NCBI GenBank assembly: GCA_003151615.1
Contig: PLXZ01000004.1
Location: 173,285-237,284 of the forward strand
Source: Candidatus Tayloriibacteriota bacterium
GTDB taxonomy: Bacteria > Patescibacteriota > Minisyncoccia > Phycocordibacterales > PALSA-1337
Reading direction: 5' to 3'
Length of the DNA stretch: 64,000 bases
This document shows, piece by piece, positions 19,627 through 53,736 of this stretch; the stretch's first letter is position 1; every line of letters begins with the position of its first letter. The translations under genes were made by a program, and so were the position numbers. Below the pieces are notes generated by a model, which had not been told where the DNA came from, did not search any database, and saw nothing but the letters and a program-made list of their open reading frames with translations.

Positions 19627-19628
19627 TA

Positions 19629-21316: not shown

Positions 21317-22060
21317 TTAGTATATGTTTGAAGGAAAAACACCCGTATACTGATTACCAAAATCATCAACGCAAGTAACCTTAAAATCATATAATGAGCC
21401 AGCTATGTCCACACCTTCACCGTTGGGACTGGTTCCAAAAGTGATAGTATGTTTTTCTGTGGCGGTGTTCGCATAGGTAGTTTGGCTATAAGGCACATCT
21501 GCGCTACCACCAGCCCATGTCCATGTGCATGTTGAGGTGTTTCCGCTCGGTATTGATAGAGAAAAGCCATACTGGCCGTTATAAAATTCCGATACTTGTA
21601 CAGTCGTCGCATTAACTTTTGTATTAGGCTGAACGTCAGTAACAGGATTGTCCGTAGCTGTATTTGAATTCGTAATCGGTGACGGAGAATAATTTTCGGA
21701 GTTAACGATAGAAATTGTTAAAACTATAAGGGCAAATACTCCCCAGAAAATGTATACGGGTCTGAATCTATTTTTCTGTCGGACGACTGTAGCATAAGGT
21801 TTTGATGATTGATTGTCATCATCTGTATCGAAATCTTCTTGCTGTGTAGTGTTAAATGTCTGGTCATAGTGTGTTTTGCTTTTTTCATTAGAAAGTACGC
21901 GGTATGCTTCGTTGACCTCTTTGAATCTTTTTTCGTTACCATTATTTGTGTCAGGGTGATATTGGAGCGCGAGTATCCGATAGGCTCTTTTTATATCTTC
22001 AGTGGAAGCGTCACGAGGAATTCCTAGAATTTCGTAGTAGTCTTTTTTCATGGTTTTCAA
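21317..22060 (-). CDS. J-domain (DnaJ-like) membrane protein
   Basis: [33 protein letters not shown] with the HPD tripeptide. Central TM helix ([15 protein letters not shown]). Confidence 0.6.
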
Positions 22061-24472: not shown

Positions 24473-24752
24473 ATCAGTTTCCCAATATGGCGAGTTAAGC
24501 GACCCTATGATGGGTTTTTTATGCTTAACTCGACTTTCTTCACCATGCCATTGGATTACTCAAATGGTTTAGGCTACTTCTAACATATTCAGTTGTGGCC
24601 TAATCATACAATAAACGCCAATATCTGCAATGGTGATTAAATCAGAGCAAGCGCAGGACAAAGTTCTTTTTGTGAGGTAGTATATTTCTATGCGGACACA
24701 GGTTTACAGCTGTTAGAGCCGAGTTTTAAGCGAAAGAGCCACCTATAAAGAT

Positions 24753-28457: not shown

Positions 28458-28534
28458 ACCTAAGATCAGCTTTCTAGGAGGCCTTTCCACAGATCCGAGT
28501 ACCGCATATTGGTTATCTCTGTTAAAATACTGGT

Positions 28535-29620
28535 ATGAGCAGTAATGCACTACTATCTTTATCAAAGACAAATAAAGTTTCGGAGCAAAATAAATTTGTG
28601 GCAGCTCAACCGATGCCAACAATTGATATTGAAAACAGGCGATATATCGGTAGCAAAGCAAAACTTTTAGATTGGATTTTTGATCACATAAAAAAAGAAT
28701 GCAAAGGAAATAGCTTCGCTGATATTTTTGCCGGTACAGGCGTTGTTTCCGCTAGGGCAGCGAGATCATTCAACAAGATTATCTTGAACGATATTTTGCA
28801 TTCGAACTTTGCTTCATATCAGGGATTTTTTGCGCAGGAAAAATATGATAGGGAAAAAATATTTAATTTTGTAGCACATTACAATTCTCTAGATGCTAAG
28901 GATATCAAGCATACATTTTTTTCAAAAGCATTTGGCGGAAAGTATTTCAATGTACCTGCGGCAAAACTTATAGGATACATTCGCGAAGACTTAAATAAGA
29001 GAAAATCAGAATTAAATAACAAAGAGTATCATATTTTGTTAACATCTTTGCTATATTCAGCTGACAAAATTGCGAATACCGTAGGACATTACGAGGCATA
29101 TTTTAAGAAAAGTATTTCAGATCGTAAATTTATTTTTAGACTAATCGAACCTTTGATCAAAGCGGGTAGAGTTTCTATTCACAGAGAGGACGCCAATGAA
29201 TTGGCAAAGAGCTTGAAAGCTGACATTGTTTACATTGATCCGCCTTATAATTCAAGACAGTATAGTCGCTTCTACCATGTCCTAGAAACACTCGCTCTTT
29301 GGGACAACCCCAAGCTTTTTGGTGTTGCACTTAAGAGGCCAGAGGAGAATATGAGCGAATATTGCAGAAACAATGCGGTCAATGCATTCGCTGATCTAAT
29401 TGGTAAACTAAATGCTAAGTATATTGTTGTTTCCTACAATAATACCTATAACTCAAAAAGCTCATCGTCGAGAAATAAGATCGAGCTTGAAGATATAAAG
29501 AGCATTTTGACCAGTAAGGGTAAGACAAAGATTTTCAAAAAAAGTCACCAATTCTTTAACGCAGGTAAGACAGACTTCAACGATCATCAGGAATGGCTTT
29601 TTATCACGGAAGTATTATGA
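28535..29620 (+). CDS. DNA N6-adenine methyltransferase, D12/Dam class (first of two)
   Basis: RYIGSKAKLLDWI (D12 class motif I) and VYIDPPYNSRQY (DPPY catalytic motif). Confidence 0.75.
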   Translation: MSSNALLSLSKTNKVSEQNKFVAAQPMPTIDIENRRYIGSKAKLLDWIFDHIKKECKGNSFADIFAGTGVVSARAARSFNKIILNDILHSNFASYQGFFAQEKYDREKIFNFVAHYNSLDAKDIKHTFFSKAFGGKYFNVPAAKLIGYIREDLNKRKSELNNKEYHILLTSLLYSADKIANTVGHYEAYFKKSISDRKFIFRLIEPLIKAGRVSIHREDANELAKSLKADIVYIDPPYNSRQYSRFYHVLETLALWDNPKLFGVALKRPEENMSEYCRNNAVNAFADLIGKLNAKYIVVSYNNTYNSKSSSSRNKIELEDIKSILTSKGKTKIFKKSHQFFNAGKTDFNDHQEWLFITEVL

Positions 29621-30525
29621 AATCAGACACATCGATTAAAAGATCACCGTTTTTTTATGTCGGTGATAAGTTCAAACTAATAAAAGAGATAAAGCAATAT
29701 TTTCCAGAGAAAATAGATTCCTTTGCCGAACCTTTTTTGGGTGGAGGGAGTGTTTTTTTAAATGTGGATGCGAAAAAGCATTTTGTTAATGATATTGATA
29801 TTAATGTTATAAATCTTCACAAGTATTTAGCTAACTCCTCAAAAAAAGAAAAGGAGTTCTTCGGAAAAATTAAGAAAATCGTGCAAAGGTATAATCTCTC
29901 CCGATCATTTTTTGAGGACGTAGTCCCTCTTTCTTTGAGAAAAACATGGCTGAAGACATATTATGCCCACTTCAACAGAGACGGCTATAACAAAATGAAG
30001 AGTGAGTACAACAAGGTAAAAAAAGATACTCTAATTTTGTATCTGTTGCTCATATACGGTTTCAATAGGATGCTGAGGTTCAATAAGAAAGGCGAATTTA
30101 ATATTCCTGTTGGAAACGTTGATTTTAATCGGAATGTCGTGAATGCGCTTCATGATTATTTTGAAGCTATGAAAAGCAAAGATGTTGTTTTTTCTAGCAA
30201 GGATTTTAAGAAATTTATTTTAGACCTAAAGCTAAATAAAAATGACTTTGTGTATGTTGATCCACCATATTTAATCTCTGCAAGTGAGTACAACAAGCTT
30301 TGGAATGAAGATTTAGATCGAGAACTAATGAGTACTTTGGATATGTTGGATAAAAAAGACATAAGATTCGCTCTCTCCAATGTCACGGCATACAATGGTA
30401 AAAAGAACGAAAAATTGATATCTTGGATGAGTAAATACAAGGTTCATCCAATAAAGAGTAATTACATCAGCTATCACAACAATAAGAAAAAGCAAATAAA
30501 CGAAGTCCTGATCACAAATTATTAA
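29593..30525 (+). CDS. DNA N6-adenine methyltransferase, D12/Dam class (second)
   Basis: FFYVGDKFKLIKEI... and VYVDPPYLISASEY. Overlaps the first MTase by 28 nt. True start may be M at 29617. Confidence 0.7.
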   Translation: MAFYHGSIMKSDTSIKRSPFFYVGDKFKLIKEIKQYFPEKIDSFAEPFLGGGSVFLNVDAKKHFVNDIDINVINLHKYLANSSKKEKEFFGKIKKIVQRYNLSRSFFEDVVPLSLRKTWLKTYYAHFNRDGYNKMKSEYNKVKKDTLILYLLLIYGFNRMLRFNKKGEFNIPVGNVDFNRNVVNALHDYFEAMKSKDVVFSSKDFKKFILDLKLNKNDFVYVDPPYLISASEYNKLWNEDLDRELMSTLDMLDKKDIRFALSNVTAYNGKKNEKLISWMSKYKVHPIKSNYISYHNNKKKQINEVLITNY

Positions 30526-30526
30526 C

Positions 30527-32128
30527 ATGCCCACCTCACGAAACAACGAATATAAACCATTACTTTTTACGACGACTGTCAGAAATCCAAGTCGCCTAAA
30601 AGCGTTGTTGAGTGTACTTCACAAATTTAATAGCCAAGAGTTAACGAATGATCTCTCTGTGAAGATAATGGGTGAGTTAATTAGGTATGGATTATACAGA
30701 CCAACAAGAGCCGTGTCGTCAGAAATCGAAAAGAAGTGGGGATCAAAAAGAATAACAGATAACTCAACAATCGGTCTTCAGCTCCTTGCAGATGATGAGG
30801 TCGCCACGTTGCTCGACAAGAACCCACAAGCTCATAAAGAGGCAGGTTTTGATCGAGGTTGGCCATCACGATTTGCGACAGTGTTCGATTTAGCTAAGGA
30901 ACTTGGGTTTGTTTTTTATACAGTTGGTGAGAAGATTGAATTTTCCGAGATCGGGTCAAAGCTTGCAAACTCGATTGAAATAAAGATTCAAGAGGATAAT
31001 ATTTTAGTAGAAGATACTCACCCTGAATTTGAGCAGCAAGCTTTTCTGCATGCACTTGCCAAGTATCAAAGAAAAAATCCTTTCGTACGTGTTTTGAACG
31101 ATAATGCCCCGCTTATACTTTTGCTTGAGGTTATTCAGAAGATAAATGCTGACAACAATTTTAATGCATCTGGTATTTCTAAATTGGAGCTCCCGCTTTT
31201 TATTTACTGGAAGAATAATGATTCCGAAGCGCTTTATCAGAGAATAAAGAAGCTTCGTAATGATTTTGGCTATTCACCTACATGGGAAACGATATGTGAT
31301 ATTTGCAGAAACGAAATAATGCAGGGTGAGGACTCCACTAGGAAAGATAAATCAATCATGCTCGAGTATCCCGATGAATATATAAGGAAGATGCGTCTTA
31401 CCGGACTCATCTCTTTGAGAGGTGGTGGTAGATTCGTTGATATAAATAAAAATGAGCAAGAGAAGGTAGATTATATCCTCAAGGTATATTCAACTTATAA
31501 TAAATATCCCACCGAGCGAGAATATTTTAATTATGTCTCTACGATCGACGAGAACCTTGTCACTGTCGGCGCCAAGGCTGTAACGATTGAAGAGAAAGAT
31601 CGTTATCTTGAGAAATGGGTCAATGAATATTCATGGCCCAAAATTCGCGAGGAAATGACGAATCTTGCTGATAAGAAGCTTACCAAAGACGACGTTCTGA
31701 AATATCTTTCGAATCCAATAAGATTGGAGTTTCTTACTGCAATAGCAATAAAATCAAAGTTTCCGAATATTAAGGTCATCGCAAACTATCCCGTAGATGA
31801 CGAGGGTTTGCCTACATCGACAGCAGCCGGAGTCAACGATATGGGCGACATTGAGTGTTACGAAAATCATAATGGTGTTCTCGTTGAGGTGACAATGTCC
31901 GAGGGCCGATCGCAGACTATGATGGAAGTGTGGCCGATCACGCGTCATCTTGAGAAATTCAGCAAGAAGACAGAGGACGCCATGTGTTATTTTGTTGCCC
32001 CAAGCCTGTACACCGATTCAATAAGGCAAATAGACTATTCAAAACAACAGTACAATATTTCGATTGTACCAAAGACAATAAAAGATTTTTTGAATCACCT
32101 AGAAAGTACTCAAACACTCTATGTTTAA
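30527..32128 (+). CDS. Putative restriction endonuclease, large (533 aa), likely Type IIS (AlwI/MlyI/PleI-family-like) partner of the two MTases
   Basis: Start 2 nt after the second MTase stop. The two-Dam-like-MTase-plus-large-REase arrangement is characteristic of Type IIS systems. C-terminal D..E.YE...VLVEVT resembles a PD-(D/E)xK core. Family assignment is inference. Confidence 0.45.
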   Translation: MPTSRNNEYKPLLFTTTVRNPSRLKALLSVLHKFNSQELTNDLSVKIMGELIRYGLYRPTRAVSSEIEKKWGSKRITDNSTIGLQLLADDEVATLLDKNPQAHKEAGFDRGWPSRFATVFDLAKELGFVFYTVGEKIEFSEIGSKLANSIEIKIQEDNILVEDTHPEFEQQAFLHALAKYQRKNPFVRVLNDNAPLILLLEVIQKINADNNFNASGISKLELPLFIYWKNNDSEALYQRIKKLRNDFGYSPTWETICDICRNEIMQGEDSTRKDKSIMLEYPDEYIRKMRLTGLISLRGGGRFVDINKNEQEKVDYILKVYSTYNKYPTEREYFNYVSTIDENLVTVGAKAVTIEEKDRYLEKWVNEYSWPKIREEMTNLADKKLTKDDVLKYLSNPIRLEFLTAIAIKSKFPNIKVIANYPVDDEGLPTSTAAGVNDMGDIECYENHNGVLVEVTMSEGRSQTMMEVWPITRHLEKFSKKTEDAMCYFVAPSLYTDSIRQIDYSKQQYNISIVPKTIKDFLNHLESTQTLYV

Positions 32129-32207
32129 TCATAAACTCGGATGCTACTTAATTTTATTGACCACATAAACAGGAAGTTCTTGAGCTGGAAGGTATAATAA
32201 TAAAAAA

Positions 32208-32654
32208 ATGACAAAAGCCGCAGACATGCTCGCAAATATGATGAAAGACCAAAACATCCAACCGCTTACACCGGCAATCATTCCTGTAGTTAAGAGTGCG
32301 ATTATTCCGACACAACCGCCAAAGAAGAAAAGAGGACGCCCAACAGCAATTACCCCAGACGTTTGTCGGAAAATAGAGGAGGTAGCAGCACTCGGCGGAA
32401 CTATCGAAGAAATGGCTATATATGGGGATATTCACAGAGATACGCTCTATGCTTACCTCAAACAAAATCCGGAGTTTTCCGACAGAATAGGAGCATTGCG
32501 TCAGAGACCCATTCTCAAGGCTCGTATTACTGTAATAAACAGCTTAAGTGAGCCACATCATGCCCAGTGGTATCTTGAACGCAAGGCACGCAAGGAATTT
32601 TCGCTGAAAGGAGAGGAGGATCCCACGATAAGGGTATTACAAATAGATATTTAA
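32208..32654 (+). CDS. Phage-like HTH protein (terminase small-subunit/homeodomain-like N-terminus)
   Basis: KKKRGRPTAITPDVCRKIEEVAALGGTIEEMAIYGDIHRDTLYAYLKQNPEFSDRI is the classic phage TerS/helix-turn-helix pattern. Confidence 0.4.
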   Translation: MTKAADMLANMMKDQNIQPLTPAIIPVVKSAIIPTQPPKKKRGRPTAITPDVCRKIEEVAALGGTIEEMAIYGDIHRDTLYAYLKQNPEFSDRIGALRQRPILKARITVINSLSEPHHAQWYLERKARKEFSLKGEEDPTIRVLQIDI

Positions 32655-32697
32655 AAAAGAGCTGAACAAATGCAGGACTATATGATATCCTTAGCGC

Positions 32698-33108
32698 ATG
32701 ATAAAAACTGAAAGCGCCGGCGGTGTCGTAAAAAACAAGGAAGGAAAAATCCTAGTTGTCAGCCAAAGGGGGACTTCATGGTCTTTGCCCAAAGGTCATA
32801 TAGAGCCGGGAGAAAATGCTCGAGAGGCTTCAAAAAGAGAAATTGAGGAAGAATCGGGGTTAACGAATATCACTTTCATCAAAGAACTGGGTACCTACTC
32901 CAGATTTAAAATAGCGAAGGACGGGGGTGAAGATACTTCTGAAAAAAAGACGTTGCATATCTTTCTGTATGAGACGGATCAAGATAAACTCAAACCAATT
33001 GATCCTGATAACCCTGAAGCTCGCTGGGTTGAACCAAATAAGGTTGCCGATTTACTGACACATCCGAAAGACAAAGAGTTTTTTATAAAGATTTTACCGA
33101 CCATATGA
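32698..33108 (+). CDS. NUDIX hydrolase
   Basis: Nudix box GHIEPGENAREASKREIEEESG (Gx5Ex7REUxEExGU). Confidence 0.7.
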   Translation: MIKTESAGGVVKNKEGKILVVSQRGTSWSLPKGHIEPGENAREASKREIEEESGLTNITFIKELGTYSRFKIAKDGGEDTSEKKTLHIFLYETDQDKLKPIDPDNPEARWVEPNKVADLLTHPKDKEFFIKILPTI

Positions 33109-33413
33109 ACAAAAAAGTCATAGTCTATGTTCCACTCTCCCACGCTGACAAGGTTCGTGAAGCTATTGCTCAAGTTGGTGGTGGAAGACTTGGTAAATAT
33201 ACCCACTGTTCATTTTCAACGAAAGGAATAGGGCGATTTAGACCCGAAAAAGGTGCGAATCCCCACATCGGTAAAGTAGGGATAATAGAAAGCGTTGAGG
33301 AAGAAAGGATCGAGGTAACATGTGTCGCTAACATTATCAATGCCGTCATTGCAGCTATCAAAAAAGTTCATCCATATGAAGAGATTCCAATTGACGTATA
33401 TAATTTAGAATAA
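33105..33413 (+). CDS. Small hypothetical protein (PII/CutA-like fold suspected)
   Basis: 102 aa. C-terminal HPYEEIPIDVY resembles the CutA/PII-like motif. Weak. Confidence 0.35.
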   Translation: MNKKVIVYVPLSHADKVREAIAQVGGGRLGKYTHCSFSTKGIGRFRPEKGANPHIGKVGIIESVEEERIEVTCVANIINAVIAAIKKVHPYEEIPIDVYNLE

Positions 33414-33628
33414 TTATGTCAGAAACCATTTTTATGACAAATGAAGAGTTGATAGAAAAATATAAAAGTCTACACCGAGAAAAAACAGGTATGGAATTGT
33501 CAGACGAGGAGGCTTTTTCTCAGGCCATGAATCTTGTTGCGTTAGTTAAAGATGTCTATAAACCCATTCCTTCCAATTTTATGAATCTATAAAAAATCTA
33601 ATCCTTTTTTTTGAAAAGTACGAAACAG

Positions 33629-33934
33629 CTAAGGTCTTTGAAACCACGCCACTATCCATCCGATTATGAAACCGATAAGTCCGTAGCAAGCTAAGGTAAT
33701 CCCATACACTGTGCCTGGTTTGTTAAAATCGAAACCTCCTTCGGGTGGCGAATTGTGCCCTGCCCAAGCTAGTCCTGCAATTATCATTATTACAGAAAAG
33801 AAAATAATCCATTTGCCAGTTTTTCGAACAGGGGAGCCGTGTACGGTTATGTGCTTCGTTCCTCCAATGCCAAACCAAGCAACGATAACTGCGACGATAA
33901 TACCCCCTGTGACCGTGATCAATAACTGAGTCAT
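33629..33934 (-). CDS. Hypothetical three-TM membrane protein
   Basis: 101-aa ORF, hydrophobic helices. Confidence 0.4.
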   Translation of the reverse strand: MTQLLITVTGGIIVAVIVAWFGIGGTKHITVHGSPVRKTGKWIIFFSVIMIIAGLAWAGHNSPPEGGFDFNKPGTVYGITLACYGLIGFIIGWIVAWFQRP

Positions 33935-34047
33935 AATAAACTACTCTATTCCTTAATATCAGCAAAGTAAAGTAGGTTACCCGCGTGATAAGTGTTTTCT
34001 CAACTCATCAATAAAATAACGCATTTCCTGACCTCCAAAAGCGCTAA

Positions 34048-37000
34048 ATGTCCATAAATGTTAAAATAGCTTTTCTCATGAACGACGAAACGCCCAATGC
34101 AATACCACCAGATAAATTTAAGTTTGACGATCCCCGTCAGAATACAATTTTCGATTACCTGAAAAGACTGGTCGGTGAGGGTGCGGCATCTTTCTATAAA
34201 GATGCTTGCCGTCACATGGTGACAAAGCCTCCTTTTGAGACTACGACGCATATCATTAGCCATCTTTTGCGCGAAGTCGAAAGCGCCCTTCGAGCCGTAC
34301 TCGAAGGGATAACTGAGCCAGCCCCTACCGGAGAAGGTAGGCACAAAAAGCAGATACAAATAATCCTGAAAGCCCTTGATATTCCTGAAAATGAACTGGT
34401 TGGTAGGGCTTGGTTGGAGTTGCCGGGAGATAACGGTTTCCAAGACACGGCTCACAGAAATAATCTTGATGCCGCGCGTCCAATGGACAACGATTTCAAG
34501 ACCAGATGGGATAATTTCAATTTGATTCTGCTATCCGTCCTAGGAAAATTCGAGACTCAATATACGAAAGTTTTTGTGACACTCAATGAGCTTGCGAAAA
34601 AGACAATGCCCGTGCAAGCAGACGTCAATACTTTAAAATTGCACATCCCAAATAATCGAGCGGCTCACGAACATTTTTTCAAAAAGATAGATTCACCCCT
34701 GTGGTTACCATTACTTAATGACGCGGGATTTTTTGCATCACCGCCCGCGCCCGAAAAAGATATAGAGAATAACAGTGTCCGCTACCCAGCTTGGCCGGTG
34801 CTTATCTATCTCGGAAAAGTCGCCACGGCATCACCAGATTTGGTGACTCAGATTCTGTCAGGTATTCCAGAAACAGAAAATGGTACTGTGAAAGCTGGGT
34901 TGATCGAGATAACGACCCTTTTGCCAAAAGAAAAGAAACTGGAGCTGATTCTGTGTGTAAAAAAATGGATGAATGCTGACAATCAATTCTTCAGCTCAAT
35001 AAAATCCATCGAACTCATAAAATCATTAGCAACTGATAAGGAGATAGATTCAGCCTTTACGTTGTCACGTGAGCTCCTGGAGTTTATTCCTGATCCTACA
35101 GTTCCCAAACCGATCGAGGGAACTGACTGGATACCTTCACGTGAGCCAAGGACAATTATAGATAAATGGCAGTACGCAAGGTTTCTACAAGATGATTTTC
35201 CGGCCATTGCACAGCAAGATCCTTTAAAGGCTCTTGGGCTTCTTTGTGACATGCTTACACGGTTCTACGATCTGAGCCATACCGGAAAGGCGGAGGAACC
35301 TCTTGAGGATTACTCTTACATCAGCCGACCGTTGATTGAGACATCGGATCATCTCCATCGCGATGATATCGATGATTCTTTGATGGAAGCGATACTGAGC
35401 GTATCAATCAATGGGATCAAAGAGGACTCTGCTTTTCTGGAAAAAAGTATCTCCAAACTGAAAAAACAAAAGTGGCCTGTGTTCACTCGCATTATCCTGT
35501 ACCTCTTGAGCAAGCATCCGATCATAAATCCGGACCTCACGATTAACTATGTATTAACTACTGAGTTTTTGGATAATCAAAACTATGGCCATGAGTACCC
35601 CTTACTGCTGAATAATGGCTTCAATTTACTTAGTTCTGAGCAGAAGAAAGTGATATTTGACCTGATTGAAAAAGCAGAGCTGATAAAAGAGCGCATTGAA
35701 ACGCGACCGGACCCAGTATCTGCGGAAAACGCAGACAAGATAGTGAAGGGCTGGCAACGTGACAAACTATCAATCATCGCAACTCATCTTGAGGGTGATC
35801 GAAAGAAGGGTTATGAAACACTGGTCGCTGATATGGGCAAAGCAGAGGATGAAGAAGTTCGACACAAGCGTTCGGGAGTTTTCGTTGGACCTGTAAGTGA
35901 TGTGGATGCTGAACGGATAAGCAAGATGACTCTTAATGAATTTATTGGGCTTCTGAAAACATGGCAACCAAAGAAGGGTGATTTCGGTTTCGGTCCCAGC
36001 AAGGAAGGACTTGGACGGGAGATCAGTGCCGCAGTCAAAAAAGAACCTGCTCAATTTTCCACTTACGCTATATCTCTCGTCGGTTTTGATCCAACATACG
36101 TCCGTAATTATCTTCAGGCATTTTCTGAAATCACACAGAATAATATTCTGTTCGAATGGAAAGCGATAGTCGATCTGGGCGTGTGGATATCAGAGCAACC
36201 TCGTGAGATTCCAGGAAGAATAGTTGGCCACGTATTCGACGAGGATGTTGATTGGGGTTGGACGAGGAGAGCTCTGATAACTTTGATTTCAAATGGCCTG
36301 AACAATAACTCGATTCCGTATGAGCTACACGAAAAAGTGTGGAAAATTATTGAAATCCTTACCGACGATCCTAATCCGACGTCGGAGCAAGAGCTGACCA
36401 GAGAAGGAACACTGACAGAAGATGCCTATGGACTCACGATCAATACCGTCCGTGGTGAGGCAATGACCGCTGTCGTTGAGTACGGATTATGGATCACTCG
36501 GTTGATAGATAAGTTGCCTGAAAACAAGAAGCCGACTCTAAAAGGGTTTGCCCTCCTGCCAAAGATCCAGTCCATTCTCGAAAAGCATTTAACAAACGAT
36601 CCGTCCATAGCTGTCCGCGCCGTATATGGACGCTATTTCCCATGGATTCTATACCTAGGAAACGATTGGACTCTCGCACACGTCAAAGATATTTTCCCGC
36701 CTGGTGGATTTAATACCCCTCTGTATGACGCGGCATGGGAAACGTATGTCACCTATGTCTCCGTCTACAATGATGTATTCGAGGTCCTCCGCGATCAATA
36801 CATGGAAGCGGTAAAAAACATCGGGACAGCAACAAAAAAGAAAAGCCATATAGATAGGGACAATAGTCTTGTTGGGCACCTCATGACCATGTTCTGGAGG
36901 GGTAAATTGGCCATCGGGGACATTCTATTTACCACCTTCTGGAAAACAGCGGATGCTGATACGAGAGGTCATGCAATGGATTTCATCGGTCGCAGTCTAC

Positions 37001-37494
37001 ACAACATGACAGAGCCACTAGAACCTGAGGAAACTGGACTATTGAAATCTCTTTGGAAATATAGAATCGAGGAAGCGGAAGCGGCGCAAGACAGAACGTC
37101 TTATCAAAAAGAGATGGACGCTTTTGGATGGTGGTTCGAAAGTGGAAAGTTTGATGAAGATTGGGCGATCAAAGAGTTTCTGAGGAGTCTCGATATAGCT
37201 AAAGGTATGAGATCAGATTACTTCGTCATCGACCGCTTGGTCATTCTGGTTGAGAGCAGACCGCTGGAGGCTCTTCAGATTCTCGAAAAGTTAATCCAGT
37301 CCGACAGACCCCAGTGGTTTATATTCGGAAATGAAAGCGATATCAGAACGATATTCACTCGAGCTCTTCATTCTCCCGAGGCAACAGCACAGAAAATGGC
37401 AACGGACCTGATCAACAGACTCGTCGCCAAGGGTTATAGTTCTTATAGTGATTTACTGTTACCTCCTCCAATTAGCCAGATTGTTATGGACTAA
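34048..37494 (+). CDS. Large hypothetical protein (1148 aa), mostly alpha-helical/W-rich, no recognised catalytic motif
   Basis: Single uninterrupted ORF. Composition suggests helical repeats. Sits between the R-M/NUDIX genes and a convergent hypothetical gene. Confidence 0.55.
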   Translation: MSINVKIAFLMNDETPNAIPPDKFKFDDPRQNTIFDYLKRLVGEGAASFYKDACRHMVTKPPFETTTHIISHLLREVESALRAVLEGITEPAPTGEGRHKKQIQIILKALDIPENELVGRAWLELPGDNGFQDTAHRNNLDAARPMDNDFKTRWDNFNLILLSVLGKFETQYTKVFVTLNELAKKTMPVQADVNTLKLHIPNNRAAHEHFFKKIDSPLWLPLLNDAGFFASPPAPEKDIENNSVRYPAWPVLIYLGKVATASPDLVTQILSGIPETENGTVKAGLIEITTLLPKEKKLELILCVKKWMNADNQFFSSIKSIELIKSLATDKEIDSAFTLSRELLEFIPDPTVPKPIEGTDWIPSREPRTIIDKWQYARFLQDDFPAIAQQDPLKALGLLCDMLTRFYDLSHTGKAEEPLEDYSYISRPLIETSDHLHRDDIDDSLMEAILSVSINGIKEDSAFLEKSISKLKKQKWPVFTRIILYLLSKHPIINPDLTINYVLTTEFLDNQNYGHEYPLLLNNGFNLLSSEQKKVIFDLIEKAELIKERIETRPDPVSAENADKIVKGWQRDKLSIIATHLEGDRKKGYETLVADMGKAEDEEVRHKRSGVFVGPVSDVDAERISKMTLNEFIGLLKTWQPKKGDFGFGPSKEGLGREISAAVKKEPAQFSTYAISLVGFDPTYVRNYLQAFSEITQNNILFEWKAIVDLGVWISEQPREIPGRIVGHVFDEDVDWGWTRRALITLISNGLNNNSIPYELHEKVWKIIEILTDDPNPTSEQELTREGTLTEDAYGLTINTVRGEAMTAVVEYGLWITRLIDKLPENKKPTLKGFALLPKIQSILEKHLTNDPSIAVRAVYGRYFPWILYLGNDWTLAHVKDIFPPGGFNTPLYDAAWETYVTYVSVYNDVFEVLRDQYMEAVKNIGTATKKKSHIDRDNSLVGHLMTMFWRGKLAIGDILFTTFWKTADADTRGHAMDFIGRSLHNMTEPLEPEETGLLKSLWKYRIEEAEAAQDRTSYQKEMDAFGWWFESGKFDEDWAIKEFLRSLDIAKGMRSDYFVIDRLVILVESRPLEALQILEKLIQSDRPQWFIFGNESDIRTIFTRALHSPEATAQKMATDLINRLVAKGYSSYSDLLLPPPISQIVMD

Positions 37495-38308
37495 TTCCTA
37501 CGGATATATCAGTGATCAGTTTATTCTTGAAGTTAGAGAAGCAGTTGAAAAAGTGCGATGCAGTAAGGAAATATAGAGTAAAGTAGGCTTTCGTCTGACT
37601 GGCGGGCATGTTATCAATAAAATCAAAATTGCTATAATTCAGCCGTAACCGCATTTGATAAAAAAAGTCGAAAATTGAAACCGTCAGCGACTGTTTAAAG
37701 CTTTCCACCCGTTGTCGATTTCTGATTGTCCTTACTTCTGTGATGCCATGGGACAATTTCCAACTAGCAATCTTCTCGTTGGCAACCTTCTTCATTATCA
37801 ATTTGTAAACTACATCGTCCTCGGTGTTTCCTCTCAAGTTTGCGCCGGAGGTACTCCGAAAATTAAGGATAGACTTATCGAATACTTGATTAAAGAGAGG
37901 TTGGCTAAATTGAAGCGATCCGCTTGATAGTAATCCAGTGAAATGTTTTACGCAGTCTACGTGTTTTGCTCTGAGCTGCGATGTCTTGCCTGTCATGAGA
38001 CAGTCAATGACGCATAGCAGGTGATAGGCAAGGTAATAGGATTTGATAGGCAACCACAAAACGGCTGCGGTCGAGTATTCTTCATCCATTTGTACGATAC
38101 CACACTCGTCGTCGATTGATTTTTTCGTCAGCTCAATTAAACGTACCTTGTCTCTGATTGCAGGAAGCTCTGTTGGTGTGAGTAGTGCATTTGATGTAGA
38201 TGAAATTGATACGCCACGTGCAAGTTTTGCGAGGAGGGATATATATTTCAGATGCGTAGAAAAGTCCGGTCTGTTTAAGGGGGAGAATGGAGATTGTGTG
38301 AATAGCAT
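37484..38308 (-). CDS. Hypothetical protein
   Basis: 274-aa ORF convergent with, and overlapping by 11 nt, the 1148-aa gene. Confidence 0.4.
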   Translation of the reverse strand: MLFTQSPFSPLNRPDFSTHLKYISLLAKLARGVSISSTSNALLTPTELPAIRDKVRLIELTKKSIDDECGIVQMDEEYSTAAVLWLPIKSYYLAYHLLCVIDCLMTGKTSQLRAKHVDCVKHFTGLLSSGSLQFSQPLFNQVFDKSILNFRSTSGANLRGNTEDDVVYKLIMKKVANEKIASWKLSHGITEVRTIRNRQRVESFKQSLTVSIFDFFYQMRLRLNYSNFDFIDNMPASQTKAYFTLYFLTASHFFNCFSNFKNKLITDISVGISP

Positions 38309-38615
38309 ATACCCACTTTATTCCTCGTTAAGAAGAAAGTAAAGAAAGAAAGCGAGTAACAATACACTCTTTTGAGTGTATGTGGACTGATTTCAAATAG
38401 ATGGTATCATGTTGGTTACAATTGAATATTAAAGTAGCCTAAACCCTCGAGTAATCGGTGGCATGGTGAAAAGTCCCGTCGGAGCCAAAGAACCCATCAT
38501 ATGGGGTCGCTCTGACGGGCCGTATCGGGAAACTGATATGAGCAACTTCGGTTGCTACCCATGTGGTGGGCTTTTTGCTACCACTCATGGAATATTTACG
38601 CCCTAAAATATTCGC

Positions 38616-39614
38616 ATGAAAATCCTAATTACGTTCGCACTTGGAATCTTTAGCTTTTTCCATCAATCAATAACTCCTACCATTGCCATCTCAACAACCA
38701 CAGAGACGGCGACAACCTCTGTCTTTTCATCAGAAGCTACCACATCAGTGGCAGATTCTAATACTCAAAATGTAAACATATGCGAGAAAGAATATGGCAC
38801 GAATAGTTTAAACTCCGGTGGTGCTCCTGCCTGTGAATGCGCGCATGGATACGCCTGGAATAATGAATATACCAAATGCGTGACGCCAACGGTTGCTTGT
38901 TCAGAAATTAATGCCAATTGGGATGGTAAAATTACCAACAGTGAAGCTGAGTGCAATAGCTGCATGCCTGGATACGTTCCCAATAGTGCCGGGACAGCTT
39001 GCCAAATATCTAACGTATCAAATCCCCCAGAGACTACAACTAATTTAGAACAAGACTGTTTGAATAATGTCATGCAAAACGAGGCGCAAATGCTCCAAAA
39101 ATCTAACGCAGCACAAAAAACGTCAATACTATCAATAAATGACCAGCTCCAATTAAATAACGAGGCCATGTATGAGGAAAATCAGATTATGGCCATAGGA
39201 ATCAACGCATGCAAAGCTATGGCCGGGCAACCGACAACACCAATTCAATCTACTCCTGATCAACAGTACAGCGAGACAAACTCCTCTTACCAGCCAACCA
39301 TTCAAGACACAACAGGTCAAAATAACACTAACATTTATGGGGTGATCTACGCCCTCGACGGATCAACCGTTTCTGGAAATAGTGGAAATTATTCTCGAGT
39401 GGGCGACACGATTTATACCCCCGGGGGTGCAACTTACAGTGTTGTTGGTGACACCATATACGGACCGGGTGGGGTGACCTACAGTTTGGTCGGTAACACA
39501 CTTTATGGTCCCGGCGGTACGACCTACAACCTCACCGGCAATAAGATACAAAGTAGTGACGGTTCATCTGCCTCAAAGGTCGGCGACACCATCTACATCC
39601 AGCCGGGCAATTAA
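38616..39614 (+). CDS. Secreted Cys-rich protein with C-terminal 12-aa tandem repeats (VGDTIYxPGGxTYS)
   Basis: Signal peptide. Six+ repeats of GDTIYTPGGATYSVVGDTIYGPGGVTYSLVGNTLYGPGGTTYNL. Confidence 0.5.
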   Translation: MKILITFALGIFSFFHQSITPTIAISTTTETATTSVFSSEATTSVADSNTQNVNICEKEYGTNSLNSGGAPACECAHGYAWNNEYTKCVTPTVACSEINANWDGKITNSEAECNSCMPGYVPNSAGTACQISNVSNPPETTTNLEQDCLNNVMQNEAQMLQKSNAAQKTSILSINDQLQLNNEAMYEENQIMAIGINACKAMAGQPTTPIQSTPDQQYSETNSSYQPTIQDTTGQNNTNIYGVIYALDGSTVSGNSGNYSRVGDTIYTPGGATYSVVGDTIYGPGGVTYSLVGNTLYGPGGTTYNLTGNKIQSSDGSSASKVGDTIYIQPGN

Positions 39615-39710
39615 ACATATGATCATACTTCTAATCGTACTCCTGATAATTATTGGAATCGCTTGGTATATTCATGTGTTTGTGGACAAGTATAACGAAC
39701 GAGATAGACT

Positions 39711-40439
39711 ATGAAAAACAAGAAAAAAATAATCATATACGGAATCCTACTGGTCATCGCTATCCTAGCCGTCATTGTTCTCAAGTTCTCAGTGCAGGTA
39801 TATGAGCAAGAACAGATTAATACTGCAACCCCCGGCACAGACGATGATATAGATATGTCATGGCTCTATGGCACAGCCACCTCGACCATCCCCGGCATGG
39901 ATGATAGCGACAGTTATGTACTGCTCCAAAGTGACAGCGCCGTCCCTACCTACAAGGATTTCTTAAATAATGATCTTCAAAAAGTATGTCCTTTTTACAA
40001 GCCAGATGGTATTACCTATCGAGACTGTCTTGGTAATCTCTTGGCAGATAGAGAAAAAGCAGTGGAGCAAATGTATAGCGACCTTGTACGTGATACGCAA
40101 ATTGTTAGCAATGAAGCTATGGCGGAGGGACCGATAGGTGGAGGTCTTGTCGCTCGAACAAACGAATACTTTCTCACAAATCTAGCCATGCTCGAAAAAA
40201 CATGGAAACCGTACCGGGATGCACTCTGTAGTGCTGAACTTTCTGATACCTACAGTGGTAGTAATCAGTACGGCTATTTAACAACCTGCCAAATCTACGA
40301 GACTACTGCATACGAAACACGACTTATTGGATTTCGATATGAATATGTTGGTCAAGCTGTAGAGTGGCGCATACAGCAAAATGTTACTCCTAAACTTGAA
40401 ACGTTTAAAGAGTTGATGAGCAGGGAATCTAATCTATAG
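39711..40439 (+). CDS. Membrane-anchored protein with LprI-like (DUF1311) pattern
   Basis: N-terminal TM. C...C...W..YRDALCSAE...SGS....C....T..R.. spacing resembles the lysozyme-inhibitor LprI family. Confidence 0.4.
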   Translation: MKNKKKIIIYGILLVIAILAVIVLKFSVQVYEQEQINTATPGTDDDIDMSWLYGTATSTIPGMDDSDSYVLLQSDSAVPTYKDFLNNDLQKVCPFYKPDGITYRDCLGNLLADREKAVEQMYSDLVRDTQIVSNEAMAEGPIGGGLVARTNEYFLTNLAMLEKTWKPYRDALCSAELSDTYSGSNQYGYLTTCQIYETTAYETRLIGFRYEYVGQAVEWRIQQNVTPKLETFKELMSRESNL

Positions 40440-40534
40440 AAAGCTGTGGGGCTTTGTGTCGATATGGGTGAAAACATTAAACTGTAGCAGCTTAACTTGA
40501 AAAAGAAATATTCTCGGAGCATACTTGTCGTAAC

Positions 40535-41422
40535 ATGAGTGAAAAGAGTGATTCTACAAAAAATACAAGAGTCGTTTCTAAAATATATCAAGAAAACCTA
40601 GGACTCATGATAGCAGTGAGTGACTGGCTTTTTAGACATCACAGAAAAATAGTGACTGATTTCGATGAGAAATATAAGCTTTTTAATTCTGCTGAAATCC
40701 AAAAAGAAAAACCGTTCAAATGGACTCTCGATGAAGATCTGATGTTAGATTCAGGATTTTTAGACAAATATGATGAGGGTACACGATGGAACATGAATTA
40801 TATAAGAGAAAGAATGGCTAAAGATTTCAAAGATAGCATTCTCTCTAAAATAAAACTACCTCTCCATTTTCATTCACATCTTTGGAATCTAATAGCTTAC
40901 GGAGATGTAGGTGCACCAGGAGTTAATTTCTCTATTACTTTCCAGCAAATAGATCCAAAGTCCGATATCCGAAAGGCCACAGTTGGTGGTATGCAGTACG
41001 CCAGTCTTAATGTCTACAAGCCTCTTTCTACAGCAGAAAAGGTATTAGCCGATAAATTACTAAATGGACTCAACTCTATCGCACTTCATAAATCGGTAAG
41101 TGAAAAAAACAATTTTAATAATGTCGTCCTGACCCTCAAGATATTAGACGATACGATAAATCAGGGCCGATCAAAAAGAACGAAGAAATACACTGGCTAC
41201 TTAGCAGCTCTTGCTAAGGCTGTTGATAGAGGCGATCACCCTATTAAGGCACTTAGAAAATTGGAAAAACAACACCCAGATGATGTTGTCATCGAGAAAG
41301 GGACACAGATTACGAGTGACAAGATTTCCAAAAAATTGAGAGTTAGTAGTGGTGAAAATGTAAGGACTATTATCAAAAGACATAAGAAAAAAATGAACTC
41401 ATATTTCGAGAAATTGTTGTGA
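40535..41422 (+). CDS. Hypothetical protein
   Basis: 295-aa ORF, Lys-rich. Confidence 0.45.
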   Translation: MSEKSDSTKNTRVVSKIYQENLGLMIAVSDWLFRHHRKIVTDFDEKYKLFNSAEIQKEKPFKWTLDEDLMLDSGFLDKYDEGTRWNMNYIRERMAKDFKDSILSKIKLPLHFHSHLWNLIAYGDVGAPGVNFSITFQQIDPKSDIRKATVGGMQYASLNVYKPLSTAEKVLADKLLNGLNSIALHKSVSEKNNFNNVVLTLKILDDTINQGRSKRTKKYTGYLAALAKAVDRGDHPIKALRKLEKQHPDDVVIEKGTQITSDKISKKLRVSSGENVRTIIKRHKKKMNSYFEKLL

Positions 41423-42056
41423 CAATTTTCTAGTATAAAACTGTCACGGTAAAAATAAATGTGATGATATCTTGCTGCTAGAGCCTTTATTGGCTCAGAG
41501 TGGCGCTACTAAAACACTAGCCCCTGGCATCACTCCCAGGGGCTTTTGTTATGCATTTAAAAGAGAAAGCAACCCAAAAACTAATGGAAATCATCAGCAA
41601 AGATTATGGTGTTTCCCTTACTCATCAGGAAGCTGAAGAGTTTGGCCTTTCTTTAATACGCATTACAAAAATTGGACAGAATGTTTTTAATCGCAAAGAG
41701 CAAATACCAGCAGACTAGATCTGCCTCTTCAAGCCCTGGGCGAACCTATGTGGGGCTTGTAAAAATAAAACAGACATAGGACTTGATGGATTCCGTGATC
41801 TCGCGGTACAGAGATGGCTTATACGTTCAACGGAAAACCAGCAAGACCTCTGATTACGTTTCGCTAAAAGCATCTGATCGTAATCATGTTCGCTCTCGGT
41901 GGAACCATAGCCGAGTAGACAGCGGATGCGAAGTGCTCTCCGGGCTAAAGCGGATAAAAGAGCATAGCGATATCTCCTTTGTTGGGGGTAGGGGGGCTTT
42001 TGGACACTCTGGGCTTTCCGTTCAACAGATTAATCATTAAACTCGGTTTTATTCAA

Positions 42057-42668
42057 ATGAAAAAATCTTTACCAGAAAATAAGATCGGACAATATACACC
42101 CGAGGATGCTCGCAAGCTCGTCGAGTTTATCTTTCTTGAGAATAGTGATCCGCAGAACATTTACAGTGAGCTTGCTGAAAAAGTAATGCCAAAGTTTATG
42201 AAAGGAACCGATGAGGAGAAAGAGTGGGCGAGACGTCAACTTCTTGGAAGATCCAGTGAAGCTGTTATGACTGTTGGTCTTATAAATCACTATCAGATCA
42301 TTTATACAGCAGAGAAACAGTATGCATCGTTAATTCTGGAGATAACACGAAAAATCGAAAAGGAACATGAATGCACAACAGCAGTCGAGAAGATTTTGGC
42401 TGAGCAAATAGCTATGGCTCACATAAAAATCATTGATTATTCTCGGAGATTTGAAGAATGGTGTAGTAGTCCTCAATCAAGTAAGGTAGAGATAACAAAA
42501 TTTCTAGAGATGCTCGGCCGGCAAATAGACAAAGCAAATCGGCAATTGCATACAGCCATAATCGTATTGAGACAGATCAAGCAGCCGGCGCTATCTGTGA
42601 ATATCAATACAAAGAATATCTTTACTGCACAAAACCAACAAATCAATGATAACTCGCAAAAAACATGA
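42057..42668 (+). CDS. Hypothetical protein
   Basis: Internal Met MKKSLPENKIGQY chosen. The upstream part of the listed ORF has junk composition. Confidence 0.4.
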   Translation: MKKSLPENKIGQYTPEDARKLVEFIFLENSDPQNIYSELAEKVMPKFMKGTDEEKEWARRQLLGRSSEAVMTVGLINHYQIIYTAEKQYASLILEITRKIEKEHECTTAVEKILAEQIAMAHIKIIDYSRRFEEWCSSPQSSKVEITKFLEMLGRQIDKANRQLHTAIIVLRQIKQPALSVNINTKNIFTAQNQQINDNSQKT

Positions 42669-42997
42669 AATCATATAATCCGAATGATTCAGGAAAAAAG
42701 TTTCTGGTTGATGAATGTCAAAAAATAAGTATAACAACCTATATTCGACAAGCTAAAGCAAAGCTCAAGAATGCACTACTCATGAGCACACTTGAGATGG
42801 ATAGCAAGGCCATAGAATTGACCCCCTCAAAGACCTCATTCCATGGCGAAAGATATTGGTTCAAATGCCCTAAATGCAGTAAGCGCGCCGGCACATTATT
42901 CGTACATCCACTGAATCATGAAATTGGATGTAGAAAATGCCTTAACCTTGAGTACAGAAGCAGAAGATATAAAGGCATGATTGAGGAGTCATTTTAA
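42665..42997 (+). CDS. Hypothetical zinc-ribbon protein
   Basis: CPKCSKR...CRKC, 110 aa. Start overlaps the upstream stop (ATGA). Confidence 0.4.
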   Translation: MKSYNPNDSGKKFLVDECQKISITTYIRQAKAKLKNALLMSTLEMDSKAIELTPSKTSFHGERYWFKCPKCSKRAGTLFVHPLNHEIGCRKCLNLEYRSRRYKGMIEESF

Positions 42998-43056
42998 GCC
43001 CGTAGACTTATCTTGTATTAGCGGTATTGTATGTGTTAAGACAACTAACAAAAATA

Positions 43057-44759
43057 AAATGAAAAACGAAGCGCAAATAATAAATTACGATGTGTATCTC
43101 CGTAAATCGAGTGAGGCGGAAGATAAACAGATTCAGTCCATCGATGACCAGAGGCGAGAACTGAATGAATATGCAAATAAGAATAATCTTCACATAGTAG
43201 GTGAGTTTGAGGAATCGCAGAGTGCACATCATCCAGGGCGGCCGATTTTTAACAAAGTCATGAAAAGGATCGAGAAGGGAATATCGACTGGATTACTAGT
43301 TTGGCACGCCAACAGAACCTCGAGAAATCCAGTTGATAGTGGAACAATAATAAACCTTATCGATGAAAAGAAACTGATACATGTTAGGACGCCGTCACAT
43401 ATTTACGGTAATACTTCCACGGAGAAAATGATGCTTGCACTTGAGTGTATGATGGCTAAAAAAGATTCGGACGATAAAAGCGAAGCGGTAAAGAGAGGTC
43501 TACGCGGCAGATATAGAAAGGGACTTCCAAATGGCGTGGCACCTATCGGATTCCTAAATGATATGTCAGTTGAAAAAGGTAATCGGGGATGGCTTGTGGA
43601 CGCCGAAAAGCTCCCTCTTATTGGCCAACTTCTTCAGCTCTGTCTTACCGGAAGATATTCAACCAGAGATCTCCTAAATATCGCAAATGAGGATATGGGA
43701 CTCCGCACCCAACTCCGCAAAAAACAGGGAGGTAAAAAACTTGTGCTCTCATATCTGACAGATGTCATCCTTAAGGGAGAGGTATACGCCGGATTTTTCT
43801 ACACCGCTGATGGTGAGAGACATGATTTGGCTGAAAGCATCCCAAGACTAATTACAGAAGAACAACACTGGCAAATTAGAAAGATATTAGGTGATAGAAA
43901 CAGGCCTCGAGCGTCAAAAAATAAAATGACCTTCGCGTATACGGGACCGACAAAGTGTGGAGGGTGCGAGGGATCAATCACTGCTGAACACAAGTACCAG
44001 CTTATTTGCGCCTGTAAATTAAAGTTTGTTTATCTTAATAAGACACATTGTCCGGGGTGCGGAGTTTCAATAAAAAACATAGAAAAGCCCACCTATCTTC
44101 ATTACATTTATTACCACTGCACTAGGAAGAAAGATTTACTTTGCCGTGAGGGTAGTGTGCAGGAATTATACATAGATAATCATCTAGCAACATACTTCAA
44201 AGAAAATTTCAAAATCTCGAAAGCGCTCCATGAATGGTGTATCGAAAATATCGAAGCCCTTGATGCTGGCGATGCTAAAAACGGATCCGAAAAGAAAATA
44301 TCTTTGGAAGCGACCATCGCTAAAAAGCAAAATGAATACAAAGAGCTTGTTCTCATGAAGACCCGCGGACTTATCAGTGATAGCGATTTTGTAGAGCTTA
44401 AGACGAGCCAAAAAGCCGAAATTGAGGCCTTACAGCGGACTTTGAGCAATACGCCAAATAAGGACCAAACATCAAGCGTTAAAGCGCGTAGAGCCTTTAC
44501 GCTCGCATTAGGAATTGAAGAAGTATTCAAGAACGGAACACCTCAAGAGAAAAAAGAGGTGTTATCAGAGATTGGTTCGAACCTAACTTTAAAAGACAAA
44601 AAGCTCAATGTTTACAACACAGGAATCTATGAACGGATCATAAACGGACTACTTAGGGCGAAAGCAGAAAATCCTCGGTTCGAACCTGAATATATCTTAG
44701 ATACATCAAGTCAGAATAAAGATTTTATGCTCGCACGACCAACTCTGCTCCGGGAGTAG
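43057..44759 (+). CDS. Large serine recombinase (second copy, distinct sequence)
   Basis: YDVYLRKSSEAEDKQIQSIDDQRRELNEY (resolvase catalytic domain with Ser), recombinase domain, CGGCEGS...C zinc ribbon. Stop codon lies inside the 3' end of the adjacent tRNA gene. Confidence 0.75.
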
Positions 44760-45091
44760 GGATCGAACCTACGACCAATCGCTTACATCGCTCCTCTTGT
44801 TGCCAAAAGGGATGGACTATATCATTTCCATACATTGTCAATCTGATTTGACGAATGATTAGGGACGAGGGGCTTCGCGGGCTGTTTTGAAATTTTTGTA
44901 TTTCATAACGCCAGCTACTCTTTAAAAAGATAGTCTCTACACCTTCCCATTTTTTGAATGGGCTCGGCTCGGGATTGCCCGCAGTTTTGTGCTGCGGGTT
45001 TCCCCGATTTCTCCTCGTTATTCGACCAGGCTTTTACCTGGAAGCTGCAAGTTGTTTACAGGCGACTGCTCTACCGCTGAGCTATCCCGGA
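44748..45091 (-). tRNA. tRNA gene (probably tRNA-Asn GUU) interrupted by a group I intron in the anticodon loop
   Basis: 5' exon TCCGGGATAGCTCAGCGGTAGAGCAGTCGCCTGT (acceptor, D-arm GCTC/GAGC, anticodon stem GTCGC). 3' exon TAAGCGATTGGTCGTAGGTTCGATCCCTACTCCCGGAG (anticodon stem GCGAT, T-arm GTAGG-TTCGATC-CCTAC, 7-bp acceptor complement). Exons are separated by ~270 nt. Confidence 0.6.
44786..45057 (-). ncRNA. Group I self-splicing intron within the tRNA
   Basis: P-like ACTGCGGGCAA, Q-like AACCCGCAGC, R-like GTAGAGACTAT and S-like GATATAGTCC elements in order. P1 possible between exon CTGT and GCAG (terminal U.G). Omega-G precedes the 3' exon. Confidence 0.55.
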
Positions 45092-53635: not shown

Positions 53636-53736
53636 TAAAAAGGTCCTACAAATTCCACTCGATTTTACAAATGGCGAGAAGACTTGTCCAAAGTTTTATT
53701 TTTGATTATTTATAATAAATGAAATTATAAGGTATA

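Follow-up and report, generated by a model that had tools for sequence, protein, structure and literature searches.

How does a transfer RNA (tRNA) gene come to lie in two pieces, with the stop codon of a recombinase gene inside its 3' end? This is the question raised by a locus in a 64,000-nucleotide stretch of contig PLXZ01000004.1 from a Candidatus Tayloriibacteriota bacterium (phylum Patescibacteriota), and we refer to this whole 64-kb stretch as the window. A preliminary description of this DNA, made from the letters alone, had read positions 44748-45091 of the minus strand as a tRNA gene interrupted by a group I intron of about 270 nucleotides, and had taken the tRNA to be the integration target of a genomic island to its left. 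The explanation that we favor, with a probability of roughly 0.87, is that a subgroup IA intron without a homing endonuclease gene splits a tRNA-Asn(GUU) gene, and that an island carrying a large serine recombinase independently integrated at the 3' end of the same gene. The features on which the argument turns are the following.

45058..45091, minus strand: tRNA-Asn 5' exon (ARAGORN intron mode), 34 nucleotides corresponding to nt 1-35 in standard numbering, in which the 5' acceptor strand (TCCGGGA) is followed by the D arm, the 5' strand of the anticodon stem and C32, U33, G34 and U35.
44786..45057, minus strand: group I intron of 272 nucleotides without an open reading frame (ORF), starting with AAACAAC and closing with a terminal G (omega-G) at 44786 (Rfam RF00028, ARAGORN).
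44748..44785, minus strand: tRNA-Asn 3' exon (ARAGORN intron mode), comprising U36, A37 and A38, the 3' strand of the anticodon stem, a variable loop of 5 nt, the T arm (GTAGG TTCGATC CCTAC), the 3' acceptor strand (TCCCGGA) and the discriminator G73 (base 44748); no CCA is encoded.
43059..44759, plus strand: large serine recombinase of 566 amino acids (Pfam PF00239, phrog_95), likewise 566 amino acids in the source assembly.
44747..44750, no strand assigned: putative crossover core GCTC (GAGC on the tRNA strand, nt 71-74), placed by junction alignments, with the element on the left and the host tRNA on the right.

On the minus strand the two exons read TCCGGGATAGCTCAGCGGTAGAGCAGTCGCCTGT (45091-45058) and TAAGCGATTGGTCGTAGGTTCGATCCCTACTCCCGGAG (44785-44748). 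When joined they form a 72-nt cloverleaf with a perfect 7-bp acceptor stem, a D arm, a T arm and a 5-nt variable loop, and the spliced anticodon stem is GUCGC/GCGAU with the loop CUGUUAA. ARAGORN with default settings found no tRNA genes in the whole window. With introns allowed it called exactly one, a tRNA-Asn(gtt) with a 272-nt intron (cctgt/intron/taagc), which is the very gene of the preliminary description, and the spliced 72-mer is recognized as tRNA-Asn by default ARAGORN. The spliced tRNA matches the intron-less tRNA-Asn of relatives at 66/72 positions (L008), 65/72 (L024) and 63/72 (L015), each of these comparison genes being located downstream of fmt-hpf or beside a homologous recombinase. 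To the right of the tRNA the window continues with the core genes hpf, fmt, def and priA, and the order priA-def-fmt-hpf-tRNA-Asn is conserved in relatives, which in an fmt scan of species-representative genomes carried the labels Zambryskibacteria, Campbellbacteria, Saccharibacteria and Parcubacteria. At the sequence level these data confirm a tRNA-Asn(GUU) gene with a group I intron between anticodon nucleotides 35 and 36. A promoter and terminator scan around the tRNA gave hits no more numerous than in shuffled sequence.

The recombinase contains the resolvase catalytic domain PF00239 (E 2.4e-19, residues 12-155) and aligns with the phrog_95 integrase over residues 20-544 (1e-46). Its gene had been drawn from 43057, but an ATG at 43059 is the more likely start and yields the 566 amino acids called in the source assembly. 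The stop codon overlaps the tRNA 3' acceptor strand as had been claimed: TAG is found at 44757-44759, so that the ORF ends 12 nt inside the tRNA, and the final codons CTC CGG GAG TAG (44748-44759) are the complement of the tRNA discriminator, the 3' acceptor strand and a segment of the T stem.

Such an overlap might also have arisen by chance or rearrangement, the enzyme being a resident invertase or resolvase or the island having entered elsewhere. Neither a left junction (attL) nor a displaced tRNA fragment was found, which would fit this alternative, and the DNA left of the tRNA varies in every relative, a sign of frequent rearrangement. However, a metagenome scan produced six full-length recombinase homologues with 62-78% identity, and in L023/L024, L026 and L028, that is on three to four independent contigs, the recombinase gene and an intron-less tRNA-Asn(GTT) gene overlap at their 3' ends in the same convergent geometry as in the window; L026 and L028 continue beyond the tRNA into hpf-fmt-def. 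The T stem of L028 has no TAG, and there the ORF continues until it meets a TAA, which lies in the anticodon loop's complement. Even the serine recombinase of L015, merely 25% identical, overlaps tRNA-Asn likewise. The element side ends with the same ...CTCTGC/TC in all occupied sites, and the trailer GCAGAG is found only at tRNAs with this recombinase. Furthermore, the closest relatives (L030, L031/L032 and L033, with fmt 77-78% identical) carry identical tRNA-Asn genes followed by three different flanks, all starting at one nucleotide, right after ...GGAGC (L030 from 11782 onward, L031 from 7602 onward and L032 from 2263 onward, L033 at 9613-9741). Two of the L030-L033 contigs share an identical fmt protein. 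We consider this alternative distinctly unlikely, and the shared geometry together with the flanks diverging after GGAGC supports, on the sequence comparisons made here, the earlier proposal that the tRNA-Asn 3' end is the integration target of the island.

Because identical tRNAs carry three flanks that start immediately after ...GGAGC, we place the probable crossover within GAGC (tRNA nt 71-74). L033 has kept a recombinase 3' relic of ~130 nt (9613-9741) comprising only the last ~43 codons, and the L030-L033 flanks, as far as can be read from the contigs, show turnover and decay of elements at the tRNA-Asn site within a population. The same recombinase end adjoins non-tRNA sequence in L025 and L027. 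The C-terminal tail differs correspondingly: the last 3 residues and the stop come from the tRNA in the window, as compared with 33 extra residues in L027. A second copy of the LOOT RNA (described below) downstream in L027 suggests element DNA and hence an attP form, which makes L025 and L027 candidates for this form. The stop codon inside the tRNA would be a by-product, since attP lies within the recombinase ORF. The intron is at least 35 nt from the crossover, outside the ~25-bp half-site of a serine integrase, and has no role in integration.

With its N-terminal resolvase domain, a length in the range of ~500-600 amino acids and a gene adjoining the attachment site, the enzyme resembles the integrases of phiC31, Bxb1, A118 and TP901-1. 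Serine integrases of the phiC31 and Bxb1 type leave no long direct repeat, and none is seen here. The location at the tRNA 3' end with the tRNA left intact is shared with the tRNA-targeting islands of the Islander/TIGER kind (PMC4383910), from which the present island differs in having a serine enzyme, in having the attachment site within the last codons of that enzyme, and in a crossover at tRNA nt 71-74 instead of in the T or anticodon loop. According to the Islander publication (PMC4383910), tRNA targets are typical of tyrosine integrases. The locus offers a cleanly mapped case of a serine recombinase that targets the final nucleotides of tRNA-Asn, and this in a phylum with poorly known mobile elements.

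The intron itself matched the Rfam model Intron_gpI (RF00028) at 44793-45067 of the minus strand with 52.1 bits (E 2.4e-10), which exceeds the gathering score of 50, and the match was full-length (model positions 1-253). The predicted helices are listed in order along the transcript; counts refer to the window intron and its homologues introduced below.

45045..45061, minus strand: P1, exon CUGU plus intron AA (45056-45061) paired with the internal guide UUGCAG (45045-45050), from the Rfam alignment.
45026..45041, minus strand: P2 hairpin CCAGGU/GCCUGG, with 4/6 pairs changed on both sides among the 7 introns.
44866..45017, minus strand: P3, CGAGG (45013-45017) with CCUCG (44866-44870), in a pseudoknot with P7; 100% paired and invariant in 7/7.
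44935..45007, minus strand: P4-P5 and P6-P6a domain, with the same fold in the 7 homologues.
45002-45007 with 44969-44974, minus strand: P4, UCGGGG/UCCCGA, with double changes in 4 pairs.
44992-44998 with 44978-44984, minus strand: P5, CCCGCAG/CUGCGGG.
44941-44968, minus strand: P6/P6a, in which P6 is GCC/GGU with the 3' strand GGU at 44941-44943.
44935-44940, minus strand: J6/7 and the first base of P7.
44815..44935, minus strand: P7, GACUAU (44930-44935) with AUAGUC (44815-44820), enclosing P7.1, P7.2, the P3 3' strand and P8.
44920-44929, minus strand: P7.1, between P7 and the P3 3' strand.
44877-44915, minus strand: P7.2, also between P7 and the P3 3' strand.
44833-44857, minus strand: P8.
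44793..44810, minus strand: P9 hairpin with a GCAA tetraloop; the hairpin is kept with altered sequence, and the loop is GNRA in 6/7 introns.

At its 3' end the intron reads ...GCGAUG and the 5' exon ends in U, which forms a U.G pair with the guide UUGCAG; the preliminary description had thus been right in pairing a U-ending exon with a GCAG guide and in noting a G before the 3' exon. In 7/7 sequences the 5' splice site carries the U35.G wobble, and the pair next to it changes between A-U and G-C. Among the group I core elements that had been proposed by eye, R and S hold and form P7, whereas the supposed P (ACTGCGGGCAA) and Q (CCCGCAGC) are the two strands of P5 in reversed order, the true P/Q pair (P4) being UCGGGG/UCCCGA. 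P3 and P7, the two halves of the pseudoknot, form in all 7 introns. The minimum-energy fold of the precursor had a z-score of -5.9 and recovered most of the mapped helices. In the classification of Michel and Westhof, subgroup IA is marked by two additional helices, P7.1 and P7.2, inserted between P7 and the 3' strand of P3. Hairpins P7.1 and P7.2 are present, with differing sequences, in all 7 homologues, and since they lie between P7 and the P3 3' strand in the predicted fold, they indicate subgroup IA for the window intron.

Intron-split tRNA-Asn genes were found at the syntenic locus in L001, L002, L005, L009, L010, L013 and L014, five of them above the Rfam gathering score, and the homologous introns scored 56-75 bits. 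Six homologous introns from related genomes share the helices of the window intron, with compensatory changes. Segment-wise folding of the 7 introns gave the same P2, P4-P5, P6-P6a, P7.1, P7.2, P8 and P9 in each, built from helix sequences that differ. Pair counts were limited to P1, P2, P3, P4, P6 and P7, which MAFFT aligned in register; P5, P6a, P7.1, P7.2, P8 and P9 were judged by per-sequence folding because MAFFT put them out of register. Of the cells in the counted helices 98.6% are paired, and both sides have changed in 9 pairs. None of 500 shuffled controls reached the observed paired fraction or covariation score, and with shifted partners the pairing was only 35-42%.

The conserved fold is also what speaks against regarding the split gene as a dead tRNA with a decayed, non-splicing intron remnant, the cell being served by another tRNA-Asn elsewhere. 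Such decay would fit an Rfam score only 2 bits over the gathering score and the absence from the window intron of the HNH endonuclease ORF found in L005, L001, L002, L009 and L036, and the window covers just 64 kb of a 563-kb genome. Yet all core helices are intact, the variable helices stay paired through compensatory changes, and the exons still form a perfect cloverleaf that is 66/72 identical to an intron-less gene. Nor does a missing endonuclease gene point to decay: the introns of L010 and L014 (235-276 nt) are endonuclease-free and nevertheless score higher in Rfam, and most tRNA introns of a published survey lack such genes (PMC13011429). In the same study splicing was confirmed in vitro for two Patescibacteria introns of the 35/36 kind (PMC13011429), and the window holds no second tRNA gene. 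A dead tRNA is, in our judgment, very improbable. Shifting the reading by two bases gives a tRNA-Thr(UGU) with the intron at 33/34, which is how ARAGORN and tFind called such genes in published cases (PMC13011429) and how ARAGORN called L013, but this has next to no chance of being correct and was rejected because the last intron base would then be A instead of G, and P1 would be left without its U.G pair at the 5' splice site. ARAGORN's own call for the window gene is Asn, and after splicing the gene has the same anticodon arm, GCCTGTTAAGCGAT, as the intron-less tRNA-Asn of L008, L024 and L015. The discriminator G73, compatible with Asn identity as known from E. coli, counts against Thr(UGU) as well. 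With this the doubt about tRNA identity that the preliminary description had expressed is removed.

For the tRNA-Asn gene split by a subgroup IA intron and used by an independent island, we picture the following events. The precursor would be transcribed from the minus strand, and the guide UUGCAG would pair with exon CUGU and the following AA to form P1, setting U35.G at the 5' splice site. Exogenous guanosine would cleave there, after which the terminal G (44786) would enter the G-binding site in P7 and the exons would be ligated; this would restore the anticodon loop CUGUUAA, and CCA would be added post-transcriptionally. The island would have integrated independently of the intron at the extreme 3' end of the gene, the recombinase having recombined an attP contained in its own ORF's final codons with an attB made up of the tRNA T arm, the acceptor 3' strand and the trailer, with the crossover in GAGC (nt 71-74). 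The tRNA would remain whole with only its trailer swapped, and the recombinase ORF would now read into the tRNA, where the T stem supplies its stop TAG.

A number of results weigh against this explanation. The attL was not found by similarity to the L027 right arm, by regular expressions or by local alignment, and nothing in these searches scored above shuffled background. No island-free copy of the same genome was found, 3/3 contigs with an identical fmt protein carrying the island, and L025 and L027 may represent another integration site instead of attP. At E <= 0.05, Pfam detected neither the recombinase domain (PF07508) nor the zinc ribbon (PF13408) in the 566-amino-acid enzyme. In BLASTP the enzyme aligns as far as residue ~312 to the L015 recombinase, in which both domains are present; in the window enzyme they may be too divergent for Pfam detection. 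On the intron side, P3, P6 and P7 are 100% paired but invariant across the 7 sequences; they are therefore compatible with the fold and gain no independent support from covariation. No P10 pairing is apparent in the window intron, and that this particular copy splices is something we infer from its sequence. A displaced copy of the tRNA 3' exon was also searched for and not found, which is expected because serine integrases leave no long direct repeat.

Introns of this kind are not new. Williams (2020; bioRxiv 10.1101/2020.01.27.920355) raised the known intron-split bacterial tRNA types from 4 to 21, and these include 'Asn.4Ug' according to Nakagawa et al. (PMC13011429). The latter authors (2026, mSystems; PMC13011429) described Patescibacteria tRNA-Asn(GUU) genes with group I introns at 35/36 that were missed by standard tools, classed 25/28 introns at this position as subgroup IA and found HNH endonuclease genes in four Patescibacteria tRNA-Asn introns. 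The window intron shares with the published ones the phylum, the tRNA, the insertion site, the U at -1, the terminal G and the IA-type architecture with P7.1/P7.2; it too has relatives with an HNH ORF and is missed by default finders. It differs in that this copy is without an endonuclease gene and directly abuts a serine-recombinase island. Since 35/36 introns in Patescibacteria tRNA-Asn were published in 2020 and 2026, it is a further case of a published kind and its novelty is low, which the preliminary description had overrated. The same holds for the lesson for annotation, already published, that default tRNA finders miss such a gene, so that in small genomes an essential tRNA looks missing.

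The classical tRNA introns of subgroup IC3 are found in cyanobacterial tRNA-Leu(UAA) at 34/35, in Azoarcus tRNA-Ile(CAU) and Agrobacterium tRNA-Arg(CCU) at 36/37, and in tRNA-fMet at 33/34. Like these, the window intron is small, of a self-splicing type, located in the anticodon loop and equipped with a GUAGAGACUA / GAUAUAGUC core and a GNRA-closed P9; unlike these, it occupies another insertion site and has P7.1 and P7.2, which IC3 introns lack. Phage introns of subgroup IA such as T4 td interrupt protein-coding genes, possess P7.1/P7.2 extensions and carry HNH or other homing endonuclease ORFs in peripheral loops. The P7.1/P7.2 extensions and the association with endonucleases are thus common to T4 td and the present group, whereas here the host gene is a tRNA and the relatives have their endonuclease ORF in the P1 loop, with the ORF running through the guide and P2.

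The introns of L001, L002, L005, L009 and L036 contain an ORF of ~90-145 amino acids with an HNH motif in the P1 loop; the window intron has the same flanks as L005 and no ORF. In the long introns the HNH ORF continues through the guide sequence and P2 to a stop in J2/3, and the ORF-less window intron (45020-45050, minus strand) retains the same frame tail, LQLPGKSLVE followed by a stop, because those bases form ribozyme helices. Among the closest relatives the intron is polymorphic, being absent from L030-L033, L006, L008 and L015 and present together with the endonuclease gene in L036 and L005. The data thus show presence and absence of both intron and endonuclease at one syntenic locus among close relatives. 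In L013 (14608-14896) the tRNA-Asn at the same locus has a 216-nt intron at 35/36 without P7.1/P7.2 and with an IC3-like look (GUAGAGACUAGAUACCGG...), for which ARAGORN gave the position 33/34 and miscalled the gene as Thr(tgt). One site is therefore occupied by two different types of intron in related genomes.

The serine-recombinase elements have a further component in common, the LOOT RNA (Rfam RF03000) of ~120 nt. It was detected with 81-95 bits in 5/6 of the sampled elements, in most cases at a distance of 1.3-4.5 kb upstream from the recombinase gene, and was not seen in the 3.4 kb of L026 examined. The copies are as follows.

24454-24575, minus strand: LOOT RNA, window.
38436-38556, plus strand: LOOT RNA, window, inverted relative to the first copy.
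2537-2659 in L024: LOOT RNA.
661-782 in L025: LOOT RNA.
4428-4550 in L027: LOOT RNA.
10208-10327 in L027: LOOT RNA.

This recurrence may give an orphan RNA family its first genomic context, and we regard the novelty of a tRNA-Asn-targeting serine-recombinase island with LOOT RNA as modest.

The island as far as it can be delimited comprises the following features.

28535..44746, plus strand: minimum island cargo beside the recombinase; the left boundary was not located, and there is no synteny with relatives.
28535-30525: two D12 adenine methyltransferases.
30527-32128: AlwI-like (AlwI-family) restriction endonuclease.
32698-33108: NUDIX protein.
34048-37494: ORF of 1148 amino acids without a family match.
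38436-38556, plus strand: the LOOT RNA copy already listed, likewise part of the cargo.

The methyltransferases and the endonuclease (28535-32128) make up a type IIS-like restriction-modification module, and many of the further island ORFs have no assigned function. Left of the tRNA, over roughly 17-45 kb, the G+C content (GC) drops from ~0.5 to 0.35-0.44, and no synteny with relatives was found on this side. A prophage identity was not adopted because a megablast search of 38-52 kb against phage genomes gave no match, the recombinase had no relative among viral contigs, and the island gave no phage structural hits.

A second large serine recombinase is encoded at 26838-28457 (plus strand; 539 amino acids, resolvase and recombinase domains); it is 22% identical to the first and unrelated to it. 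Small ORFs at 13-14 kb are followed downstream by repeats of the final 38 nt of this recombinase's ORF, GCTCCGCATGTTGAACGAAGTCAGAACC...; the copies lie at 13165-13202, 14058-14095 and 28421-28458, with a degenerate one at 9136. This enzyme's gene, too, thus seems to terminate across an attachment site of its own. The site right of its stop codon (~28.46-28.54 kb) was considered as attL of a 16.3-kb element and discarded, as the resemblance was too weak.

Nine sites in the window have a GCTC (or GCTT/GTTC) core (9136, 13165, 14058, 14866, 17208, 18089, 19001, 28421 and 44747), with interchangeable left and right arms that fall into two right-arm families plus the tRNA-Asn arm. To judge from these arms, the array looks like hybrid sites from repeated site-specific recombination. 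The surroundings at 12-19 kb contain small paralogous ORFs and repeated terminator hairpins. Four fragments resembling tRNA 3' ends (plus strand; 13110-13131, 17149-17172, 18033-18054 and 18945-18966) consist of T loop, T-stem 3' strand and acceptor 3' strand, e.g. TTCGATCCCTGTTCGGGTATCC. No matching 5' half or intact tRNA was found near the four of them, and they are possibly remnants of earlier integrations. Given the second, unrelated recombinase, its 38-nt repeats and the nine GCTC-core sites, the low-GC region is probably a mosaic of several elements.

A wider joint reading of these data, speculative and on balance unlikely to hold as a whole, would make the serine-recombinase elements of Patescibacteria a distinct class with the attachment site inside the 3' coding end of the recombinase gene. 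The swap of the C-terminal tail would help to set directionality, the LOOT RNA would be a functional partner of the recombinase (in regulation or site choice) and not unrelated cargo, and the GCTC-core array at 9-19 kb would record repeated recombinase-driven capture of cassettes.

A Swt1-like HEPN, a DnaJ-domain and a peptidoglycan-binding protein are encoded in the stretch with the lowest GC (19043-23058, minus strand). A homologue of the ORF at 20725-21249, with 47% identity, lies within the recombinase element of L027, whose ORFs gave uninformative results in Pfam. On the other side of the tRNA, two ORFs of 1391 and 349 amino acids without a family match (49460-54786, plus strand), low in GC and with strong GC skew, sit between priA and an HTH/EPSP-synthase gene. 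As these two neighbors are adjacent in L033, L030 and L036, 49460-54786 is a second insertion in the window.

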